Shown here: in pieces, positions 2,594 through 51,951 of the stretch | Layout of the letters: each line of letters opens with the position of its first letter | Position numbering within the stretch: the stretch's first letter is position 1 | Assembly: GCA_016214025.1 (NCBI GenBank) | Contig: JACRPH010000004.1 | Location: 17,370 to 81,369 of the forward strand | Source: Candidatus Woesearchaeota archaeon | GTDB taxonomy: Archaea > Nanobdellota > Nanobdellia > Woesearchaeales > GW2011-AR9 | DNA: 64,000 nucleotides | Direction: 5' to 3' | Notes under the pieces: model-generated | Told to the model about the DNA's origin: nothing | The model's input: the letters and a program-made list of their open reading frames with translations, nothing else | Database searches by the model: none | Translations under genes and position numbers: made by a program

Positions 2594-3451
2594 ATGGCAG
2601 AGAATGGCATTATAGATATAATGGGAGATTTAGGTGATTTAGCAGAACAAGCATTATTAATGAGGGCGTGGTGCTTAACTGAAGCAGTAATGATGCCTTC
2701 ATCAAAAAGCTTAGAAGTGCTTTCTCAGGCATTCCCTCGCTTTGAAAAGCACTTTGTAGAGTTGAAAACTCATCTTGTTGCAGGCAAAAACCTGGAAAGT
2801 TACTTTAGGGAGAATGTTCCACCGTTCCATCCTTTAATCCCGGCATTCGTCTCTGTAGGGGAAGCTACGGGTAATTTAGACATTTGTTTTGCTAATTTGC
2901 GTGACCACCTAGACAAAGAAGTAGAGCTGCGGGAAAAAGGGTTAAATCTATCACAACTGTGTACTTGGAAATTTTATAAAGCCATTTCAACTTTATTTAA
3001 TGCGGGGTTGCCCCTGGCGGAATCGTTAAAAGAAGCCAACAGCTATTCCAATTTTCTTCCTAAAGAGGTGATAGACGAGATTCTTGCCAAAACACCGGTT
3101 TATCAGTCTAACACTGCAAAAGAATTTAACCTTGCCCGCTTACAAGATATTTTAAATTATATCACTCATTTAAAAGATGTGGGAGAAGAGGTGCCGGAGC
3201 CTCTTAAACGGCTTCAACAAGGAAAACTGGTTAATCTTAATGAGTTTAGAAAAATTAAAGCTCCACAGTCTTCTGCCGATTTTGCCGAGGCGTTAGCTAA
3301 ACATCCCAAATATTTCCCTGCTTTTGTAGTAGAAATAATAAAATTTGGGGAGGAAGGAGGGATACTTGATGCGGTTTTATCGCGGCTGGCAGACTTTTAT
3401 GAGAAAAAAGCAGAGTATGAGCCATTTTTTCTGCAGAAAAGTGGAGAATAA
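2594..3451 (+). CDS. Soluble protein with two T2SF (PilC/GspF/TadC-type) repeats and no transmembrane segments.
   Basis: Two copies of the T2SF hallmark: PAFVSVGEATGNLDICFANLRDHL and FPAFVVEIIKFGEEGGILDAVLSRLADFYE (consensus fP.l...i.vGE.sG.Ld..L..lAdfYE). There are no hydrophobic TM stretches. Confidence 0.45.
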   Translation: MAENGIIDIMGDLGDLAEQALLMRAWCLTEAVMMPSSKSLEVLSQAFPRFEKHFVELKTHLVAGKNLESYFRENVPPFHPLIPAFVSVGEATGNLDICFANLRDHLDKEVELREKGLNLSQLCTWKFYKAISTLFNAGLPLAESLKEANSYSNFLPKEVIDEILAKTPVYQSNTAKEFNLARLQDILNYITHLKDVGEEVPEPLKRLQQGKLVNLNEFRKIKAPQSSADFAEALAKHPKYFPAFVVEIIKFGEEGGILDAVLSRLADFYEKKAEYEPFFLQKSGE

Positions 3452-3530
3452 TTCTCTACGATGCTGGCTCTGGAGTTGATTTTAAGGAAAAAGGGAGTTC
3501 TGGGTTTGGCTTTACGCTGCCGGAGAAAAT

Positions 3531-6972: not shown

Positions 6973-7767
6973 ATGCCTGAACTAACTGAAGAGCAACGGA
7001 AACAGCTGGAAGAGAAGATCAAGAAGATGTCTCCCGAGGAGCTGAAAGAGTTCCAAAAACAGCAATGCATCTTCTGCCAGCTCATCTCCGGTAAGATTCC
7101 CAGCAAAAAAGTATATGATGACGAAAAGTGTATCGCCGTATTAGATATTGCTCCCGCTTCTAAAGGGCATCTGTTGATTATGCCTAAAGAACATTATGCT
7201 ATCATGCCTCAAATTCCTGATAAAGAAATCGGGCATTTATTCCTAGTATCAAAATATCTCTCCCAAGTCCTGCTCAAAGTGTTAAAAGTATCCGGAACTA
7301 ATGTATTCGTGGCCAATGGCGCCGTGGCCGGGCAAAGAGCCCAACATTTCATGCTGCATTTAATTCCCAGAAAAGAAGGAGATAAAATAATCGAAGTAGA
7401 AGATAAGCTAATTGATGCCGGGCTAAGAGCAAAAGTAAAAGAGCTGGTAGAAAAACGATTAAAGACGTTGTTGGGAGTAAAAGAAGAGAAGCAGGCTGCG
7501 TTGCCGAAAGGAGAACAGAATGTTCCAGAAGAAAAATCCGTTCCTGAAGAAGAGTCAGCTGAAACTAAAGAAGAAACTGCTGAACCTGATGCTGAAGAGG
7601 AAACCGCAGCTGAAGAAAAGGTAGAAGAAAAACCAGCTAAGACTACTAAAAAAGCATCCAAGAAATCTTCCTCTAAATTAAGTTCCTCTAAAAAAAATAA
7701 GCCTAAAGATGAGCCAGAAAGCGCGGGAGATGCCAGCTTGGACGATATTGCTAATTTATTCAAATAG
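6973..7767 (+). CDS. HIT-superfamily protein with a degenerate histidine triad and a C-terminal K/E/S-rich low-complexity tail.
   Basis: CIFCQLISGKIP...GHLLIMPKEHY...ANGAVAGQRAQHFMLHLIPRKEGD shows the HIT fold motifs, but the triad reads H-F-M-L-H, with Met at the middle His position. Confidence 0.6.
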   Translation: MPELTEEQRKQLEEKIKKMSPEELKEFQKQQCIFCQLISGKIPSKKVYDDEKCIAVLDIAPASKGHLLIMPKEHYAIMPQIPDKEIGHLFLVSKYLSQVLLKVLKVSGTNVFVANGAVAGQRAQHFMLHLIPRKEGDKIIEVEDKLIDAGLRAKVKELVEKRLKTLLGVKEEKQAALPKGEQNVPEEKSVPEEESAETKEETAEPDAEEETAAEEKVEEKPAKTTKKASKKSSSKLSSSKKNKPKDEPESAGDASLDDIANLFK

Positions 7768-17720: not shown

Positions 17721-20276
17721 ATGGCAGATGAGGCTCAAGAAGCAAGAATTAATGTAAGCAATAATGCGGTAAATGGGGCTCAAAACTCCAACAGCACCAA
17801 AAGTGTCCTAGACATAGACAACGATATCCTCACTCCGGGAATGAAGCAGTATCAGGAAGTGAAAAAGCTCCATCCTGACTGCCTGGTCATGCTAAGGATG
17901 GGAGATTTCTATGAAATGTTCTATCAGGATGCCGTTACCGCGTCCAGAGAATTAGAAATAACTCTCACCTCCAGAGGAAAAGGAGACAAGCGTGCGCCGT
18001 TAGCCGGAATTCCTTATCATGCGTTAGAGCCATACCTAGCGCGATTAGTGAAGAAAGGGCACAAGATAGCTATAGTAGAGCAATTAGAAGATCCTAAACT
18101 TGCCAAAGGCTTGGTAAAAAGAGGATTAGTCCGCATAGTTACTCCGGGAACCATATTTGAATCATCTATGCTGAATGAAAAAGAGAATAATTATTTGATG
18201 GCGCTTACAGCTAGAGGAGAAGAGTTTGGGTTAGCTTTATGTGACGTTTCTACCGGAGAGTTTTCTACCATTACAGCAGAAAGCCTTAACCAACTGCATA
18301 ATATCATTATCCGTTTCAACCCCAGCGAATGCCTCATTCCCGAAAGCCTAAAAGTGAATCAGGAACTGATGGAAAGATTAAGGCATTATGATTGTTTAAT
18401 TAATTCATTGGGAGATTATTTCTTTTCCGTAGAAAAGTCCAGAGAATTGCTGCAGAAACATTTTAACTTATTAACGCTAGATGCATTTGGAATTGCAGAT
18501 AAGCCATTGAATGTTGCAGTTAGCGGAGCTTTACTGAAGTATTTGTTAGACACACAAAAAAACTCCTTAACCCATCTGAAAAAAGTATCTTTAGTTAATG
18601 TGCAGCAAAAGATGCAGTTAGATTCCAGCACTTTACGTAATTTAGAATTAACCCAGAATATTCGTGACGGAACCACCCGAGGAACGTTGCTTTCAGTATT
18701 AGACAAAACCGTAACTTCTTTAGGGGCAAGGCTGCTGCGGAAATGGCTCAAAGAACCGTTATTAAACATAGATGCCATAAACAAACGCTTAGATGCAGTA
18801 GAAGAATTTAATCGCCGGGTAATTCAGCGGGAAGAGATTATCTCTCTATTAGAATCAGTATATGATCTGGAACGCTTAATCAGCAAAGTTAATTATGGCA
18901 GCGCTAATGCCCGCGATTTACTCTCACTGAAAACTTCATTGCAGCAGCTGCCTCAGATTAAGCAGAAGCTGAGCGGATTTGAAAGCTATTTACTACTTGA
19001 AATAAACTTGATAGAAAACCTGCACGAACTAACCGCTTTGCTGGAATCCTCCATTCGGGAAGATGCTCCGGCTACAGTAAGGGAAGGAGGAATAATAAAA
19101 TCCCATTATAATTCTGAATTAGACCAATTACACGATTTGAAGCACAACAGCAAGAAATATCTGCAGGAGTTGGAGGAAAAAGAAAAACATAAGACCGGAA
19201 TACCGTTGCGATTGGGATACACTAAAGTGTTCGGGTATTTTATCGAAGTAACTCACAAAAATGTTCCGATGGTGTCCCCGGATTGGATCCGAAAACAGAC
19301 TACGGTTAATACTGAAAGGTATATTACTCCTGAACTGAAAGAAATCGAAGAGAAAATTCTAACTGCGGAAGAGAAGATTGTGGAGTTAGAGTACCGCCTG
19401 TTCCAAGAGCTGGCACAAAGAGTAGCGGAGAATACGGTTAAGATTCAGGATATTGCATCAAAGATGGCGGTGCTGGATGTATTGTGCTCTTTATCTCGGG
19501 TGGCGCTAGAGAATAATTATGTCAAGCCGGAGATAGTGGGACAGAAGGTTATCCAGATTAAAAACGGCCGGCATCCGGTAGTGGAAAAAATTGAATCAAG
19601 ATTTATTGCTAATGATGTGTTTACTTCGGAAGGAGAGATGCTCATAATTACCGGGCCCAACATGAGTGGAAAATCTACGACCATGCGCCAAGTAGCGCTT
19701 ATTGTATTAATGGCACAAGTCGGCTCATTTGTACCCGCAGAAAAAGCGGTTCTGGGAATAGTAGATAGAATATTTACCCGTGTAGGCGCTTATGATGATT
19801 TAAGTTCAGGACAGTCTACGTTTATGATAGAAATGACCGAAACCGCTAACATCCTGAATAATGCTACGGAAAACAGCTTGATAATTTTGGATGAGATTGG
19901 AAGGGGAACTTCTACCTTTGATGGGGTTTCTATCGCTTGGAGTGTAGCGGAGTATCTTATTAATCACACTAAAGCTAAAACTTTGTTCAGTACGCACTAT
20001 CATGTGTTGAATAAGCTGGCAGAGAAGTTTTCTCGGATTAAGAATTATAATATTGCGGTGCGCGAGAGTAAAGGAGAAGTTATTTTCCTGCATAAGTTAA
20101 TCGAGGGAGGAACGGATGAGAGTTACGGGATTCATGTAGCGAAGCTAGCCGGATTGCCGGAAGAAGTAGTGAAGAGAGCAGAAGAAATTCAGGGAATATT
20201 GCAGGCAGATGATGAGATGATGCGGAAGATAAAAGCGAAGAAATTAACTGAGCAGATGAGTCTGGAGAAGTTTTGA
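17721..20276 (+). CDS. mutS: DNA mismatch repair protein MutS (bacterial MutS1 type, domains I-V).
   Basis: N-terminal mismatch-binding region TPGMKQY..GDFYEMF. Walker A GPNMSGKSTTMRQ is present, with ST-F-E-TAN-LDEIGRGTST motifs. Length is 851 aa. Confidence 0.85.
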   Translation: MADEAQEARINVSNNAVNGAQNSNSTKSVLDIDNDILTPGMKQYQEVKKLHPDCLVMLRMGDFYEMFYQDAVTASRELEITLTSRGKGDKRAPLAGIPYHALEPYLARLVKKGHKIAIVEQLEDPKLAKGLVKRGLVRIVTPGTIFESSMLNEKENNYLMALTARGEEFGLALCDVSTGEFSTITAESLNQLHNIIIRFNPSECLIPESLKVNQELMERLRHYDCLINSLGDYFFSVEKSRELLQKHFNLLTLDAFGIADKPLNVAVSGALLKYLLDTQKNSLTHLKKVSLVNVQQKMQLDSSTLRNLELTQNIRDGTTRGTLLSVLDKTVTSLGARLLRKWLKEPLLNIDAINKRLDAVEEFNRRVIQREEIISLLESVYDLERLISKVNYGSANARDLLSLKTSLQQLPQIKQKLSGFESYLLLEINLIENLHELTALLESSIREDAPATVREGGIIKSHYNSELDQLHDLKHNSKKYLQELEEKEKHKTGIPLRLGYTKVFGYFIEVTHKNVPMVSPDWIRKQTTVNTERYITPELKEIEEKILTAEEKIVELEYRLFQELAQRVAENTVKIQDIASKMAVLDVLCSLSRVALENNYVKPEIVGQKVIQIKNGRHPVVEKIESRFIANDVFTSEGEMLIITGPNMSGKSTTMRQVALIVLMAQVGSFVPAEKAVLGIVDRIFTRVGAYDDLSSGQSTFMIEMTETANILNNATENSLIILDEIGRGTSTFDGVSIAWSVAEYLINHTKAKTLFSTHYHVLNKLAEKFSRIKNYNIAVRESKGEVIFLHKLIEGGTDESYGIHVAKLAGLPEEVVKRAEEIQGILQADDEMMRKIKAKKLTEQMSLEKF

Positions 20277-30245: not shown

Positions 30246-31025
30246 CTAAAAGTAGAGATAAGGCTTTCTCTTATTCTCCTCAAATTTTTCGATGGCATAC
30301 CTTAGCATCGTTCTCGGCATAGTTGTATAATGCTTCTTTAGAAACTCTTCCTCTACTTCCTGATTTCTGTTGCCTATTTCTCTTAACATCCACCCTACTG
30401 CTTTGTGGATTAAATCGTGGTTGTCATTAAGTAGTATTTCTGCGATTTTTAATGTATCATCAAACTGTTCTTTACGAATAAACGCCTGAGTGGAAAGTAT
30501 CGCAATTCTTCTTTCCCACAAGTTGACTGACTTTGCCAGTTGATACAAGATGGACTTCTTTGTGTCTCCTTTATCTAACAAGTAGTCTCCTACAATATAC
30601 GGTGCAGATGAATCTACCAAGTCCCAATTGTTGATGTTTTTAGTGTTTTTGAGGTAAAAGTCAAAGAGCTCTTTTTTCTCGGTTTCGGTTGCTTTTTGAT
30701 ACTTGTTTATCAGAATGAATAATGCCGTTAATCTGTATTCATGAATGTTACTTGACAGCAGCTGCTGAAGTTCGGACAAAGATAGCTTGGAATACTTTTT
30801 AGCTGCTTCCCTTTGCTCTGGCACTACAATTCCCAGAAATTTGTCTCCTTCGCCATATTCTCCTTTTCCGGTTTTGAAGAATTTAGCGTAGAGCTCCGCT
30901 TTTTCAGCATCGGCAAGCTTAGCTAAATCTTGTTGAAGTGAGATGAGCATAATAGCAGATAAAGCCAGGGGAATATAAATCTTTTTATAAACCCAACTCT
31001 CTTCTATGTTCTTATGCACCTCCAT
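30246..31025 (-). CDS. DNA alkylation repair enzyme (AlkD/AlkC-like HEAT-repeat glycosylase family).
   Basis: EYRLTALFIL...NWDLVDSSAPYIVGDYL...HKAVGWMLREIG match the DNA_alkylation family motifs. Confidence 0.55.
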   Translation of the reverse strand: MEVHKNIEESWVYKKIYIPLALSAIMLISLQQDLAKLADAEKAELYAKFFKTGKGEYGEGDKFLGIVVPEQREAAKKYSKLSLSELQQLLSSNIHEYRLTALFILINKYQKATETEKKELFDFYLKNTKNINNWDLVDSSAPYIVGDYLLDKGDTKKSILYQLAKSVNLWERRIAILSTQAFIRKEQFDDTLKIAEILLNDNHDLIHKAVGWMLREIGNRNQEVEEEFLKKHYTTMPRTMLRYAIEKFEENKRKPYLYF

Positions 31026-32129
31026 CGCGTTAAATATAAAGACATTGAACAGCTTCCTAACCTCCAGATAAAAAAAGATTTCAAGAAAGATTTTCAGGGA
31101 AGCTCTCCCTCTATCTTCATTGGAAAGCTTTGGAGCAAGGGCAAGTTTGGGATAGGGACTATTGCCAGCATGCGCTACGGCTTGGTTAATTCCCGAGCGA
31201 AGTGGAACGTTAAAGAAGTGCATAAGCAGAACCGCTTATTGGATATCTGTAAGGAAGTAGGGATGGCTTCTAATTCAGTGGAACTGGAAGTAAATTTGAA
31301 AGAGCAACCTAAGCTTAATCTTCAGCCGGAGAAAGAGATAATTCCGTTTGGGCCGCAGGGAGAAGTGAGAAAAGCCAGAGTTACGGCTAATCCAACAGTT
31401 GATTCCAGAGTGGAAAGAATTGTTTCAGATACGGATTTAAAAGCAGTAGAAGGAGTATTAAGTTTGTACCGTAAAGGCTTTGAAGAGAATTTTCTGACTA
31501 AATTGCTTTCTTCGGGAAGTATGGGATTGGAAGCTAATAGAAAATTAGTGCCGACTCGCTGGTCTATTACCGCAGTTGATGATACCATTGGAAAAAAATT
31601 GATTACTACTGTAAAAGACTTTCCTACAGGAGAGTTTCAAGTGTATTTCGGCGGAGAATGGGGAAACTATTATTTAATATTGTTTTTTCCGGAAGTGTGG
31701 AGTTTTGAATTGTTTGAGATGTATCTGGAACATAAGCTCAATCCGTGGAGCAAAGCCGGAAATTTTTATTCTACTGATTATGAAGATTATTCGGGAAGAA
31801 AGAATTACGCCGAAGAATGTGCTGGCGGCTACTATGCCTGCAGGTTAGGGGTGCTGGATAAATTAAACGAGCTAAAACGGCAGGGTTCGGTGTTAGTGTT
31901 TAGATTTATTACTCCCGAATATAATGTTCCATTAGGAGTATGGGTGTGCCGGGAAGCCACCCGAAAGAGCATGAATGAAAAGCCGTTGACGTTTGGTTCG
32001 CAGGAATTGATGCTGAAATACGCGAAAGAATTCATCAAGAATAAGTTCGGGTTTGAATTAGAGCAGTTGCTGAAGGAGAGCAAATTGCTGAAAGAGAAGA
32101 AGGTGCAGAGGAGGTTAAGTGAATTTTAA
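31014..32129 (+). CDS. Nre-family (NreA-like) archaeal DNA repair protein candidate.
   Basis: The size and the central VPTRWSITAVDD segment resemble the archaeal Nre family. The gene sits next to mre11. Confidence 0.4.
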   Translation: MHLHRVKYKDIEQLPNLQIKKDFKKDFQGSSPSIFIGKLWSKGKFGIGTIASMRYGLVNSRAKWNVKEVHKQNRLLDICKEVGMASNSVELEVNLKEQPKLNLQPEKEIIPFGPQGEVRKARVTANPTVDSRVERIVSDTDLKAVEGVLSLYRKGFEENFLTKLLSSGSMGLEANRKLVPTRWSITAVDDTIGKKLITTVKDFPTGEFQVYFGGEWGNYYLILFFPEVWSFELFEMYLEHKLNPWSKAGNFYSTDYEDYSGRKNYAEECAGGYYACRLGVLDKLNELKRQGSVLVFRFITPEYNVPLGVWVCREATRKSMNEKPLTFGSQELMLKYAKEFIKNKFGFELEQLLKESKLLKEKKVQRRLSEF

Positions 32130-33446: not shown

Positions 33447-33480
33447 TTATAGTAAATTGCAAAAATAATGGAACATTATG
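33447..33480. repeat. 34-nt dispersed repeat, copy 1, embedded in the local hairpin CCCATAATGTT...AACATTATGGG.
   Basis: TTATAGTAAATTGCAAAAATAATGGAACATTATG is identical to 51918..51951. Confidence 0.7.
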
Positions 33481-33532: not shown

Positions 33533-34171
33533 TTAAAATTTCAAAAAGTTAATGCACTTGTTCAAATCTTGCGAAGAAATAATAAAGATGGTATCCGTCC
33601 AGCAGGAAAAGAATTCGCTGATATTAACGCCATTCTCTGAGAATAATGAAGTAAGATAAGAAATTACCCCGCAGGTGGTTTCTATCTCTTTAGGAGACTT
33701 TATGTTAATTAAAGCCAGATGGCGGTTAGTTTTAATAATATCTCCTTTAAACTTCCGCTCAAAATTACTGGCGTATTTCTCTTGGGTAATAATGGTATAA
33801 TTGTTTGACCCCTCCAATGCATAAAACAAGCCTGATTCTTTTTTGATGTTATTTTGGATTATTCCTAAAGATTCGAAAGTAGGGCTTTTCTTTAGAATAA
33901 AAACGACAATCTTATTTCTGATCTCAATCTCTGATTTGGAAAGAAGAGTAATTATATCTGAATCAGCCGTGCTCTCTTTCTTTAGCTTGTCCTGAAGCCT
34001 TATGGCCGCAATCAAGATGGCTTCCTTGGAAGTTTTTTTCTCAATATCCAGCTCTTTAGCGATGAATCTGGCGAGAGAAGAATAATTTATCAGCCCTTTC
34101 TTCAAGCAATGCTTAATATGGGGATGCTCGCGGATGTATTCATGAGTTAATTCAGTAGTATTTTTCTCCAT
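33533..34171 (-). CDS. ACT-domain regulatory protein (COG2150-like).
   Basis: C-terminal ...TCGVISYLTSLFSENGVNISEFFSCWTDTIFII is an ACT-like pattern. Confidence 0.45.
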   Translation of the reverse strand: MEKNTTELTHEYIREHPHIKHCLKKGLINYSSLARFIAKELDIEKKTSKEAILIAAIRLQDKLKKESTADSDIITLLSKSEIEIRNKIVVFILKKSPTFESLGIIQNNIKKESGLFYALEGSNNYTIITQEKYASNFERKFKGDIIKTNRHLALINIKSPKEIETTCGVISYLTSLFSENGVNISEFFSCWTDTIFIISSQDLNKCINFLKF

Positions 34172-34295
34172 TATCCCCTTTATAAATCACAATAATATAT
34201 AAACTTTACTATCTTGTTCCAAATCGAACAACTTTGTTTACTTTTGTTTGGTATTGGTCACTAGATATAAATCTTTATTATTATCCCCTACCTAA

Positions 34296-34898
34296 ATGAA
34301 ACAAAAAATCGTATTGGCATATTCCGGAGGATTAGATACTTCTGTAATACTGAAATGGCTATTAGAGAAAGGCTACGAAGTGGTCTGTTATATCGCTGAT
34401 GTGGGGCAGAAAGAAGATTTTGTTCAGGCAAAGTCAAAAGCGTTGGCTATCGGAGCCAGCAAAGTATATGTGGAAGATTTAAAAGAGGAATTTGTTAGCA
34501 AATATATTTTCCAAGCGTTAAAAGCCAATGCTGTTTACGAAGGGAAATACCTGCTGGGAACTTCTCTGGCCAGGCCATTAATTGCCCAGAAACATATTGA
34601 AATTGCTAAGCCAAAAATAGCGGAATTAATTTACAATGGATTTTGGTTCAGCCCGGAATTTGAATTTTTAATGGCAGCGATAAATAAAAGCCAGGAAAAT
34701 GTGGAGGGAAAAGTGTATTTGACTCTGTACAAAAGCAACGCTTATGTTACCGGGCGTGAATCTAAGAAATCTTTGTATGACCAAAACATTGCCAGCATGG
34801 ATAAATCTGGAGGATATGACCAGACTGATGCCAGCGGCTTCATCAAAATCAATGCCCTGCGCTTAAAATTGGGGGCTCAAGATGAAACTATGGGATAA
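34296..34898 (+). CDS. argG: Argininosuccinate synthase-like protein with an in-frame internal deletion of ~200 aa.
   Basis: N-terminus [14 protein letters not shown]...YIADVGQ...[19 protein letters not shown] is fused directly to the ArgG C-terminal segment [17 protein letters not shown]...[12 protein letters not shown]. Length is 200 aa against ~400 for ArgG. Confidence 0.55.
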
Positions 34899-34931
34899 AA
34901 ATTAGTAAAAACTATCTTTCAAGTTTACCAA

Positions 34932-35723
34932 TTGGCGATGGTTTTTACTCTAAAAGAGATGGAAAACATACGCATTACTCTGGAAACGTTGTACGATATT
35001 CTCAGAAATGAGAAGAAAAGAGAGGATTTACAGAAGTTAGATTCATCTATCTATGTGGATATCGTTAATTACTTTAAAGAAAAAGTTTCTTTCCTGGAAA
35101 AGCGGAAAAGTGACAAAGATCTGTTCTCCTCCGGAGAAGTGGATAAGATGGAATATGAATTAAGAAGCATCCGCCGGATTCTTAAAGAGCTATATGAGAA
35201 GCGGGAGAAGAAAATAATTGATATCGCCCTGAATAAAAGCAGAACCGGCTCAGAAATCATAGACACCAGCTCCATGCTGCCAGAAGAGAAAGAATTCTAT
35301 CTAAGAACTCTAGCAAATTTAGATGAATTCCGAAGAGGTATCTTGTTCAACATTTTCAAAGGAGAAATTCCGGAGATAGTCGGATTAACTGTGCAAAGAA
35401 AATTGGCTGATGTTGGTATAGAAGCATATGAAGATACATCACCGCCGGTTAATACGAGCAGTACTACTCAGAATAAACTAACTGAGCCCACACCAGAACC
35501 ACAGAAATTACTTGAAGTTCCATCTGGACCATTAAAACCAGCAGAACCACCAACCCCTTTACCAGAAGCCAAGAAAACTAAAATCAAATTCATTCAGCCG
35601 GTGCCCAGCTTTGTGTGGAAAGACATGAAAGTATATGGGCCATTCAGCGTAGGAGACGAAACTGAAATATTCACTGAAGTGGCTGAGTTAATCGTTAGAA
35701 AAGGAAGAGCAGTCAAAGTTTAA
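34932..35723 (+). CDS. GINS subunit (Gins51/Gins15-like), with A domain, Pro-rich linker and B domain.
   Basis: N-terminal alpha-helical LETLYDILRNEKKREDLQKLDSSIYVDIVNYF, then a PEPTPEPQ linker, then C-terminal KFIQPVPSFVWKDMKVYGPFSVGDETEIFTEVAELIVRKGRAVKV. Confidence 0.5.
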   Translation: MAMVFTLKEMENIRITLETLYDILRNEKKREDLQKLDSSIYVDIVNYFKEKVSFLEKRKSDKDLFSSGEVDKMEYELRSIRRILKELYEKREKKIIDIALNKSRTGSEIIDTSSMLPEEKEFYLRTLANLDEFRRGILFNIFKGEIPEIVGLTVQRKLADVGIEAYEDTSPPVNTSSTTQNKLTEPTPEPQKLLEVPSGPLKPAEPPTPLPEAKKTKIKFIQPVPSFVWKDMKVYGPFSVGDETEIFTEVAELIVRKGRAVKV

Positions 35724-38575: not shown

Positions 38576-39351
38576 GAGGTGTTTAATTCTACATAAGCAG
38601 TACACCCATACCCCACCACCCTACTTTTATCCCCAGCCGTATCTCCGGAATTGCGGTAGTCAATCAATTGCGGCTTCCAGCCTTTCAGTTCTGCCAGATG
38701 CATCAGCACTTTAATGGGAGTTCTGCCGCAGGCATCCAAATCAGCAGCATCGCCTTTTAAGATATTACTAATGGTTTGGTTATCTTTTAGAACGGCTTTG
38801 CCATATTCCAGGTAGTGGCTCAAATCAGAGCTTACTATCACTAAAGTATCATCGTCTAATTTCTCGGAAATAAACTTGGCTAATTTAGCTTCGTTTACTG
38901 TTCCAATAACTAAGGCATACAATTCAAATTCTTTCAAAGTCTCTTGCAGAAATGGCAGCTGCACTTCTAAGCTGTGTTCTTGAGAATGTGCTTCAGGAGA
39001 GATTTCAATTAGTCCTTCTTTGATCCATTTGGTTGCATCTCCACACTTTACTTTTCCAAATGGTGTTAAGAAATCTTCATCAGCAATAGCTGCTCCATAG
39101 AAAGTCACATAATGTGATGGACCAAGCAGAATTACTTTTTTGAATGAGTGTTTCTGTTTTTCCAGTAATTTGTATCCTTGTGCAGCCACAATTCCGGAAT
39201 AGATGTAGCCAGCATGAGGAACAATCAAAGCTTTCAGCTTTCCTTTCAGTTTAGTCTCTTCTGCTTGCTGTAAGAAAGAGCCAATCATCTGTTTTAGCTC
39301 CTCAGCTTTCTGGGGATAAAACACTCCGGCGACGGCGGGTGGGCGGGTCAT
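38572..39351 (-). CDS. MEMO1-family protein (AmmeMemoRadiSam system protein B).
   Basis: AVAGVFYP...ALIVPHAGYIYSG...ILLGPSHY...VSSDLSHY...DACG match the Memo motifs. Confidence 0.7.
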   Translation of the reverse strand: MTRPPAVAGVFYPQKAEELKQMIGSFLQQAEETKLKGKLKALIVPHAGYIYSGIVAAQGYKLLEKQKHSFKKVILLGPSHYVTFYGAAIADEDFLTPFGKVKCGDATKWIKEGLIEISPEAHSQEHSLEVQLPFLQETLKEFELYALVIGTVNEAKLAKFISEKLDDDTLVIVSSDLSHYLEYGKAVLKDNQTISNILKGDAADLDACGRTPIKVLMHLAELKGWKPQLIDYRNSGDTAGDKSRVVGYGCTAYVELNTS

Positions 39352-40862
39352 TTTACTTCCCAGTGTCCTCCTTTGTCGGGGCCGATTCTCTTCAAAATGC
39401 CTTTTGATTTGAGCCTGGCAACCGCATCTTCAATGGTACGCCGAGATAATTTTAAAGTGCGGGAGATTAAAGCAATGCGTACATGCGGATTTATGATAAT
39501 TTGCTTTAGAATTATCTCTTCTGTTTCCCCCACGTTTACTCCACGTTTACTCCACGTTTGCACCACGTTTTCTACTTTTTTCTGGATGATTTCTAAAGAG
39601 CCTACTGGTATCTTTTGCTGGTTAGAAGTAAGTGGTACACCGTCTTTTACACCGTCTTTTTCTCCGTCCCCAAACATTTTTCTCTCTAAATAGAAAGTTA
39701 TCTTATAATAATCAAAGTCGCCTTCAACTACAGGTTTCTTTGCGTAATACGACAACCATCCAGAAAACATCTTGTAAAAGCCGGAACCGATGTTCTCTGA
39801 CAACCTGATAGTCCGGAAAATTCTGGCTATCACGTTGTTTCTGGGCATGGAAAATTCTTCTTTAAGGATAAACTTGATATCTTTGGGTAATGAGCCCGGA
39901 TTAAAGAATTCAATTCTATCCGAAAGGACTCTTATCCGTGGCTTTGCATTAGAAAAATAATCTGTATGCATCAATAAATTAACTAATGCTTCCCTGATAG
40001 CAATAATTTGGGGCGGGTTCTCATCACGAGAAAAATTTTTCAGCTTAAAAGGGATGTTGATATGCTTCAATAATTTATCCGATAATGAAAAATAATATTC
40101 ATACAAATTCTTCTGAACTGGCATTCTATATTCATACCGGTCAGAAGCATTCGCAAAGGAGGTGCCGCTTACCTCAAGATACTCTATCCGAAAATCAGAG
40201 ATAACTTGATTAACTGCTTCACTGGTACCAAATACTAAAACTCCACCCACAGTTACTTTTCCTTTAACTACTACCTGCATCAGTTCCAGCATCTTCTTTG
40301 CAGAAACATTATTGTAGCGATGGGTTGGTTCAATAGTTTTAAGATATGTCCTGTACCTACCCAAAGTGTCTTGGTCTAAATCCTCGCATGAAAAAGAGGT
40401 CAATTGCTCATCTTTTTTATCGAACGAAGAATTGCGGTACATCGCATCAATTTCTTCTTTAGTTGCTCTTTGATCCCCGCTGCCGGTTCTAATAAAAGTG
40501 TTTGATGGAGAATTATAATAAATTGGCTTGTCTTTGGGATAAACCGAGGGGATATGGAAACCAAGCACCGTTTTTTTATCAAAGGTGTATTTCTTTGATT
40601 TTGCAGAGAGTTTCCGGTTAAACTTTTCTCCTCTTAAAATTGATAAGAAATCCTGCTCTATCTTTTCTGGATTATCTACTCCTAAAACTTCATATTCTTT
40701 ACCTCGCTTAGAAACGCCAAAGATAATCCAGCCCCCAGAGGTGTTGCTAAAACCACTTACTGTTTCCCAAACATTCTTCGGAATTTCTGCTCTTGCTTCT
40801 TTTACTTCAAAGTCCTGCCATTCAATGTCCTGCAATTTTTGGATAAGTTCTTGTTTATTCAT
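39348..40862 (-). CDS. Schlafen-like AlbA_2 (divergent AAA) domain protein with a HATPase_c_4-like region and a C-terminal HTH. Often annotated as RecG C-terminal-like transcriptional regulator.
   Basis: N-terminal EWQDFEVKEARAEIP...SGFSNTSGGWIIFGV matches AlbA_2. C-terminal LKLSRRTIEDAVARLKSKGILKRIG is an HTH. The gene overlaps the memo stop by 4 nt. Confidence 0.55.
   Translation of the reverse strand: MNKQELIQKLQDIEWQDFEVKEARAEIPKNVWETVSGFSNTSGGWIIFGVSKRGKEYEVLGVDNPEKIEQDFLSILRGEKFNRKLSAKSKKYTFDKKTVLGFHIPSVYPKDKPIYYNSPSNTFIRTGSGDQRATKEEIDAMYRNSSFDKKDEQLTSFSCEDLDQDTLGRYRTYLKTIEPTHRYNNVSAKKMLELMQVVVKGKVTVGGVLVFGTSEAVNQVISDFRIEYLEVSGTSFANASDRYEYRMPVQKNLYEYYFSLSDKLLKHINIPFKLKNFSRDENPPQIIAIREALVNLLMHTDYFSNAKPRIRVLSDRIEFFNPGSLPKDIKFILKEEFSMPRNNVIARIFRTIRLSENIGSGFYKMFSGWLSYYAKKPVVEGDFDYYKITFYLERKMFGDGEKDGVKDGVPLTSNQQKIPVGSLEIIQKKVENVVQTWSKRGVNVGETEEIILKQIIINPHVRIALISRTLKLSRRTIEDAVARLKSKGILKRIGPDKGGHWEVK
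39530..39573. repeat. 11-nt tandem repeat of 4 units inside the Schlafen-like gene.
   Basis: CCACGTTTACT CCACGTTTACT CCACGTTTGCA CCACGTTTTCT. The unit length is not a multiple of 3. Confidence 0.7.
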
Positions 40863-50553: not shown

Positions 50554-51207
50554 ATGGAACAAATACCTTTGCAAATAAGATTGAAAAGAGAAGTCCACCG
50601 CAAGATAGCTTCAGCTCAGGACTTAATCGTCAAAGAAGTTTATTCTGTCTTTAATAAGGCAGTTTTACATGGAGGGACAGCCATCTGGCGGTGCTACTCA
50701 GGCAAGAGGTTCTCAGAAGATTTAGACTTTTATCTTCCTAAAGACAAAGAAAAGATAGAACAATTGTTTGAAAACTTAAAGAAAGGTGGTTTTGAAATAA
50801 AAAAGAAAAAAATCTCCGACCGAAGCATTTATTCTGAATTAGAGCTGGCTCGAACCTCAGTCCGACTAGAAGCAACTTTTCAAGATATTCCCGGAGTTAT
50901 CTGCGATTATGAACAGTCTGATGGCAATTTTATCTCCATCTACAGTTTAACTCCAGAAGCATTCTTGGCTGAAAAAATCAATACTTACCTAAAACGATTC
51001 AAAGTAAGAGACTTGTGGGATATTTTCTTTTTATTAAAGAGCGTTAAAGATTTAAAACAAATTAAAGAGATGGCAGCATTCATTAAAAACTATAAACAGC
51101 CTGTAGATGAAGAAAATCTTAAAGCCATCCTGCTGGAAGGGATAGTGCCCTCAGCTCAAGAGATGTTAATATATATCCACCAAAAATGGGAACAAGAATC
51201 CACTTAG
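50554..51207 (+). CDS. AbiEii/DUF1814-family nucleotidyltransferase (type IV TA toxin-like).
   Basis: LHGGTAIWRCYSGKRFSEDLDFY is the characteristic GGTAL...R.S.DLDF NTase motif. Confidence 0.6.
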   Translation: MEQIPLQIRLKREVHRKIASAQDLIVKEVYSVFNKAVLHGGTAIWRCYSGKRFSEDLDFYLPKDKEKIEQLFENLKKGGFEIKKKKISDRSIYSELELARTSVRLEATFQDIPGVICDYEQSDGNFISIYSLTPEAFLAEKINTYLKRFKVRDLWDIFFLLKSVKDLKQIKEMAAFIKNYKQPVDEENLKAILLEGIVPSAQEMLIYIHQKWEQEST

Positions 51208-51917: not shown

Positions 51918-51951
51918 TTATAGTAAATTGCAAAAATAATGGAACATTATG
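51918..51951. repeat. 34-nt dispersed repeat, copy 2, with flanking palindrome TATAGTAAATTGCA...TGCAATTTACTATA.
   Basis: Exact match to 33447..33480. The hairpin arms are related to those at 63645 and 63700. Confidence 0.7.

Follow-up and report, generated by a model that had tools for sequence, protein, structure and literature searches.

The locus described here lies in a 64-kb stretch of archaeal DNA, hereafter called the window, in which genes for information processing are abundant (family B DNA polymerase, Nre, an Mre11-like phosphoesterase, GINS51, archaeosine TGT and aminoacyl-tRNA synthetases). On the forward strand, an ORF at 34296–34898 begins with ATG, encodes 200 amino acids and ends with TAA. 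The protein is on public record as MBI4980112.1, under the name "argininosuccinate synthase" and on a 104-kb contig; alignments to Pfam profiles, to the T. maritima enzyme (1VL2) and to orthologues identify its gene as a remnant of a 407-codon argininosuccinate synthase gene (argG). Divergent to argG, on the reverse strand, lies a 212-aa gene (33533–34171) with weak matches to ACT_7 and DUF7523, which served as the anchor for synteny comparisons. On the other side, the 3' end of argG overlaps a short argH stub (34882–34905), and a GINS51-like gene identified by family match (34932–35723, forward strand) occupies the position at which relatives carry argH.

The region between argG and the anchor gene contains two divergent TATA-like boxes (approximately 34194–34204 and 34262–34272), and between them a palindrome, TTGTTC-N6-GAACAA, at 34214–34231. 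The box at 34262–34272, TAGATATAAAT, is on the argG strand about 29 nt upstream of the ATG and is conserved in the alignment of all argG-bearing relatives and of a further relative, L016; to judge from its sequence, the putative argG promoter appears intact. The palindrome is likewise kept in L002, L004–L007 and in L016, which has no argG, and makes a candidate operator, on which the neighbouring ACT/DUF7523 protein might act. Scans for sigma-70 promoters and intrinsic terminators were uninformative, the host being an archaeon.

The 200-aa protein is made of the two ends of an ArgG. The ArgG N-terminal HUP domain profile, PF00764, matches residues 4–115 (E 2.8e-41) through its positions 1–114 of 162 only, and the ArgG C-terminal domain profile, PF20979, matches residues 102–191 (E 1.4e-29) through its positions 128–217 of 219 only. 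Consistently, the alignment with 1VL2 (E 8.8e-79) pairs query residues 1–105 with chain residues 13–117, and query residues 102–192 with chain residues 321–411. The NCBIfam ArgG equivalogs NF001770 and TIGR00032 also match in two stretches, with scores under both cut-offs (257.9 versus 334 and 224.2 versus 268.2 bits, respectively). The PP-loop motif AYSGGLDTS, invariant across the alignments, is present at residues 8–16. An earlier sequence-only reading of this DNA had described an ORF with the ArgG PP-loop N-terminus and an intact 200-aa frame, and on this point the sequence, the Pfam matches and the 1VL2 alignment agree.

Alignment to Pfam, 1VL2 and the orthologues divides the gene into a retained N-terminal part, codons 1–105 (34296–34610), equivalent to orthologue residues 1–105, and a retained C-terminal part, codons 106–200 (34611–34895), equivalent to orthologue residues 313–407. 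The N-terminal part holds the PP-loop together with strands 1–3 and the first four helices of the nucleotide-binding (HUP) domain; a complete HUP domain is absent, three strands preceding the junction in an AlphaFold model. In the C-terminal part, the synthetase domain comes to its end and is followed by the C-terminal oligomerisation helix, which is retained according to both the PF20979 match and the alignment to the orthologue C-terminus. The earlier description of this part as the oligomerisation segment was therefore right about the helix but too narrow, the retained piece (human ASS1 315–400) being larger: besides the helix, it includes the final ~57 residues of the synthetase domain. 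An AlphaFold2 prediction based on an alignment of 43 sequences reaches high confidence only up to residue ~70 (pLDDT 85–96); the overall mean pLDDT is 67.4, the 10-residue blocks past the junction average 37–67, and a helix is predicted with low confidence at residues 176–199.

To locate the gap, the protein was aligned to four syntenic orthologues of 407 residues (L004–L007). Outside the gap it is collinear with all four from the first residue to the last, and 207 codons (621 nt), equivalent to orthologue residues 106–312, are missing. The junction falls between K105 and P106, where the codons read ...GCT AAG / CCA AAA... at window positions 34610/34611. The same limits, an N-terminal part ending at 105 and a C-terminal part starting at 313, are obtained with the closest full-length homologues in a large protein database, and DNA homology to the relative L002 ends exactly at nucleotide 315 of the gene. 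The breakpoints that the sequence-only reading wished to see defined against full-length ArgG are therefore 105 and 313. Over the 200 retained residues, identity to the DPANN orthologues is 82–87.5%. A deletion mediated by microhomology or repeats was considered and provisionally rejected: the two breakpoints in the orthologues have at most 1 nt in common, and a search for repeats flanking the junction found none. Since synonymous sites are saturated (see below), the ancestral sequence cannot be reconstructed.

The functional content of the missing segment was assessed by mapping onto human ASS1, the domains of which are nucleotide-binding (1–172), synthetase (173–371) and C-terminal helix (372–412) (PMC13289927). 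On a mapping that rests on the PP-loop alignment (query A8, S10, G12, D14 and T15 equated with Ala10, Ser12, Gly14, Asp16 and Thr17), the deleted segment corresponds to ASS1 108–314, that is, to the final third of the nucleotide-binding domain and the greater part of the synthetase domain. Substrate contacts in ASS1 are made by Tyr87, Thr119, Asn123, Asp124, Arg127, Ser189, Glu191, Glu270 and Tyr282, and the ATP-site residues include Gly117, Ser180 and Asp182 (PMC13289927). Eight of the nine citrulline/aspartate contacts (Thr119, Asn123, Asp124, Arg127, Ser189, Glu191, Glu270 and Tyr282) are deleted, the equivalent of Tyr87, Y85, being the only one kept; Gly117, Ser180 and Asp182 lie inside the deleted segment too. 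Also gone is the second ArgG signature, HGATGKGNDQxRFE, which is nearly invariant in homologues and spans orthologue residues 113–126. This signature binds ATP, aspartate and citrulline. The earlier proposal that the central citrulline- and aspartate-binding region is missing is thus borne out by the loss of residues 106–312. Since these parts of the nucleotide-binding and synthetase domains are absent, the residue mapping implies that the 200-aa product, if made, could not act as an argininosuccinate synthase. A split gene, with the central segment encoded separately, was rejected: a tblastn search of the 64-kb window for the central ArgG segment returned nothing (E > 0.8).

The corresponding locus was examined in relatives. 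In six DPANN (Woesearchaeota-type) relatives, namely L002 (a Logan contig), L004–L007 (four GTDB genomes) and L017 (drawn from a metagenome scan), argG lies divergently next to the 212-aa anchor, the anchor being 66–71% identical in L002 and L004–L007. Wherever the sequence runs past argG, as it does in L004–L007 and L017, a full-length argG of 407 aa is directly followed by an overlapping argH. The comparison with orthologues that had been suggested from the sequence thus gives a clear answer, the syntenic relatives having the full-length protein and not the short form. The L002 argG displays an in-frame TAG at a conserved Lys (3439–3456; IDSTF*NLYS versus IDSTLKKPYS), 13 nt from the end of the contig, which is either a sequencing error at the contig tip or a second, independent argG pseudogene of the clade.

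Of the relatives found, L016, which comes from Hainich groundwater, is the closest: its anchor is 91% identical in amino acids and 85% in nucleotides. Its intergenic region matches that of the window as far as ~25 nt upstream of the argG start, and argG is absent from this genome. At the argG position, and behind the same conserved promoter region, L016 has an unrelated gene for a GXGXG-motif protein (reverse complement 813–1471; PF01493, E 2.7e-6), which has no homologue in the window. In the more distant L008–L015, argG is absent within 10 kb. A neighbour-joining tree of the anchor protein places the argGH-bearing genomes in one clade and the window, together with L016, in a neighbouring clade. 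In a published survey, ArgG and ArgH of DPANN were described as patchy and laterally acquired (PMC8407392).

The argH gene of these relatives encodes a Lyase_1 protein of 393–396 aa in L004–L007 and L017 and overlaps the argG stop codon by ~17–25 nt; it is found on the reverse strand at 7482–8672 in L004, 7498–8679 in L005, 6480–7670 in L006 and 7415–8596 in L007. ArgH is short in this clade, about 391–396 aa, and ASL_C2 is barely detectable, its match being limited to 25 residues in L007. In the window, homology to the start of these genes reveals a stub at 34882–34905 that reads ATG AAA CTA TGG GAT AAA AAT TAG (MKLWDKN*). Its MKLWDK (34882–34899) matches the start of the relatives' argH, MKIWDKG, and overlaps the 3' end of argG as in the relatives. 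Approximately 385 argH codons are lost, and beyond the 6-codon stub there is no other ArgH homology in the 64-kb window. A possible 3' remnant downstream of the stop codon, a 14-nt exact match to L005 argH (ELVK), was discarded as it is not significant at the protein level (E 26–36). The search for argH that the sequence-only reading called for therefore yields, within the window, only a 5' stub of a gene that overlaps argG in relatives.

No arginine-pathway gene was found among the 30 of 31 window ORFs of at least 240 aa that were scanned, and the remaining one, a 556-aa ORF scanned later, had no Pfam match. As these 64 kb are the part of the genome that was covered, a second, intact argG or an argH may lie elsewhere in it. 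Several other features of the window deserve mention. A complete five-domain MutS of 851 aa is encoded at 17721–20276; it is of a type that we take to be the one familiar from bacteria, and it may be another laterally acquired gene. The Nre ORF (31014–32129, forward strand) and the DNA-alkylation-repair gene on the opposite strand (30246–31223) overlap by ~210 nt as listed, and the Nre_N match starts at profile position 68 of 270, which points either to a start codon located further downstream or to a truncated N-terminus. A protein with Schlafen AlbA_2 and HATPase_c_4 domains is encoded at 39348–40862, and an AbiEii-type toxin nucleotidyltransferase at 50554–51207. Finally, an exact 30-bp intergenic repeat, TAGTAAATTGCAAAAATAATGGAACATTAT, occurs at 33451–33480 and at 51922–51951, the second copy belonging to an inverted repeat that resembles a hairpin (TATAGTAAATTGCA...TGCAATTTACTATA); the Logan contig terminates at the 30-bp repeat.

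I then asked how old the deletion is and whether the remnant is under selection. In comparisons with all available relatives, synonymous sites are saturated (pS ~0.8–0.95), which makes pairwise dN/dS unusable; it was replaced by a relative-distance test and a conserved-site test. Over the 200 retained residues, the mean p-distance to 30 outgroup ArgGs is 0.528, versus 0.529–0.540 in four intact sisters, so divergence is not accelerated. In the conserved-site test, which covered the 27 retained positions with at least 90% conservation, the window protein is altered at one and the sisters at none; the altered site is Ser147, which is Gly in 97% of ArgGs (YKGN motif). The short ORF contains no stop codon or frameshift, which is compatible with either a very recent event or constraint. 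Given that conservation of the retained parts equals that in intact orthologues, the deletion would be very recent, although purifying selection on a functional short protein would be expected to leave the same conservation pattern and fits the same data.

The open frame provides a second estimate of age. The dS of the anchor gene between the window and L016 is 0.81, and a neutral ORF of 603 nt as old as the split between them would be expected to carry ~240 substitutions and would almost never be open; with only 80 substitutions, simulated neutral ORFs were open in less than 1% of runs. If the remnant evolves neutrally, its ORF being still open therefore means that the deletion is far younger than the window/L016 split, and that L016 lost the operon independently of it.

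The same observations can be read in favour of a repurposed mini-protein, in which a PP-loop ATP-binding module and the ArgG oligomerisation helix would be selected together for another role. The frame is open when a neutral one would soon close, the start codon and the TATA-like box are conserved, the PP-loop and the equivalents of Ala36, Gln40, Arg95 and Ile98 are kept, and the retained parts show no excess divergence relative to the intact sisters. However, about one third of random deletions are in frame, which makes the open frame weak evidence, and the one change at a conserved site, Gly to Ser in YKGN, is found in none of the intact sisters. The structure is no more favourable to this proposal, since the HUP domain breaks off at position 114 of its 162-position profile, with loss of the HGATGKGNDQ strand, and AlphaFold confidence is low beyond residue ~70, especially past the junction. 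Besides, that argH was lost at the same time is easier to reconcile with disappearance of the pathway than with innovation.

Distribution also argues against a selected short form. Relatives sharing it as a conserved family, an outcome that the sequence-only reading had set against its own proposal, were not found: the protein is a singleton, its cluster having one member, and a search for proteins with the same junction among 5.8 billion clusters returned a single full-coverage hit, itself. An exhaustive HMMER search of 1.84 billion representatives did recover several ArgG-like proteins of ~170–250 aa, with 45–54% identity, but their breakpoints are each different. On this ground P0005, P0027, P0038, P0042, P0123, P0145, P0149, P0152, P0156, P0166, P0182, P0188 and P0263 were rejected as members of a conserved short family, and a further short ArgG on a 113-kb contig (P0114/L003) turned out to be a bacterial argG split into two ORFs in an unrelated lineage. 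The short ArgGs found elsewhere are, as far as their breakpoints tell, scattered one-off cases. The junction thus occurs in no second genome, and the repurposed PP-loop protein put forward earlier, left without support by the singleton status, by the differing breakpoints elsewhere and by a model that is confident to residue ~70 only, is improbable. Its more specific form, in which the 200-aa product would be expressed from the intact promoter and would use its PP-loop module and oligomerisation helix in a new role such as binding or sensing, is very doubtful; if true, it would represent a small new protein born by internal in-frame deletion of an enzyme.

The protein is clearly orthologous by descent to canonical ArgG/ASS1 (1VL2 from T. 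maritima, 2NZ2 from human, 1J1Z from T. thermophilus), and its gene has the same genomic position and promoter region as the canonical argG of the relatives; unlike canonical ArgG, it lacks 207 internal residues, an equivalog-level score and an argH partner. ArgG paralogues of other chemistry (NF038212, argG_rel, and the nitrile synthetase 9LEI/9LEH) have the PP-loop N-terminal domain in common with it, and weak matches to NF038212 (E 4.5e-20) and to 9LEI (E 4.2e-10) are detected. These paralogues, however, are full-length (~380–435 aa) and form conserved families, and it is true ArgG that the window protein resembles far more closely. Stand-alone PP-loop ATP pyrophosphatases (QueC, PF06508; LarE; the MnmA N-domain) resemble it in size, ~200 aa, and in their SGGxDTS PP-loop, and the QueC match is sub-threshold (E 2.9e-4, 20.9 bits versus a cut-off of 22); by contrast, they have a complete five-stranded HUP domain, while the fold encoded in the window is cut after strand 3 and helix 4.

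The junction recurs in a Logan assembly, L001 (run SRR12113395), with 100% identity over 2.5 kb, evidence that is not fully independent as the two assemblies may stem from the same reads. The assemblies, which appear to represent one and the same population, differ by a 94-bp indel at window position 34899–34900: L001 carries 94 extra base pairs (1450–1543) right after the argG stop codon, the first of which extend the argH stub to MKLWDKGT, with seven of the eight residues identical to L006 ArgH. The 94-bp segment was considered as a repeat or mobile element, which was rejected since the window contains no other copy. It looks like another segregating deletion in the population, or else like a difference that arose in assembly. 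A near-identical full-length allele was sought with a restored chimera in a protein database that includes Logan-derived proteins, and the best identity on the retained parts was 87.5%.

The indel bears on the possibility that the deletion allele is a minority variant, segregating and not fixed, in a population that mostly has intact argGH. It suggests structural heterogeneity at the locus, and extreme recency is compatible with an unfixed allele. Conversely, a matching full-length allele is present in neither assembly and not in the protein database either, and argH is missing from both assemblies. A minority status is improbable as things stand; it refines the view of a recent loss and does not contradict it. 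Judged very improbable is an assembly or binning artefact, the chimeric join or collapsed contig of a real genome with a full-length argG. In its favour, the contig is metagenome-assembled, the assemblies do differ only 290 bp from the junction, and scattered short ArgGs with odd junctions occur in metagenome data, some of them probably artefactual. Against it, the junction is identical in L001, there is no repeat or microhomology longer than 1 nt that could lead an assembler to leave out 621 bp, the two parts are joined in frame and in collinear order, the loss of argH goes beyond what a single mis-join inside argG explains, and identity to the retained parts does not exceed 87.5% for any full-length protein in the database. 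The assembly error at the junction that the sequence-only reading had warned of is thus unlikely.

The most probable explanation, in which I place considerable confidence, is that the short ORF is a very recent loss-of-function allele of argG within an argG-argH operon undergoing piecemeal deletion in a small-genome DPANN (Woesearchaeota-type) archaeon. The ancestor would have had a 407-codon argG and an overlapping argH, divergent from the small ACT-like gene. Since the gap in argG and the loss of argH both hit the former operon, at least two separate deletions would have taken place in the lineage of the window: one would have removed almost all of argH, leaving its first 6–8 codons, and the other would have taken 621 nt out of the middle of argG. 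As 621 happens to be divisible by three, reading past the junction would continue in the native frame to the native stop codon, giving the 200-codon ORF. The promoter, the start codon and the retained codons would still look intact because there has been too little time for further damage to a remnant that presumably evolves neutrally. The location of the 94-bp indel, exactly at the argH stub, suggests that deletions are still segregating at the locus. Intact argGH in relatives, the loss of argH, the lack of the gene in L016 and the unaccelerated divergence all speak for the reading first proposed from the sequence, in which a gene decaying in a reduced genome has recently lost an in-frame segment.

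Similar gene remnants occur in the reduced genomes of symbionts and of DPANN/CPR organisms, where operon loss is likewise stepwise and patchy among close relatives. Unlike the usual remnants, the short argG still has an intact reading frame and passes for a normal protein in the annotation, owing to a very recent deletion whose length is divisible by three. The phenomenon, erosion of a pathway, is ordinary; it is not a new kind of protein and raises no new biological question. It has a practical side, however: MBI4980112.1 bears its name unflagged, and metabolic reconstructions would therefore credit this genome with a step that it almost certainly cannot perform. At one syntenic position, related genomes present three states, an intact argG-argH operon, a deletion remnant and complete absence, and the locus thereby illustrates the stepwise loss of an operon and genome reduction in DPANN archaea.
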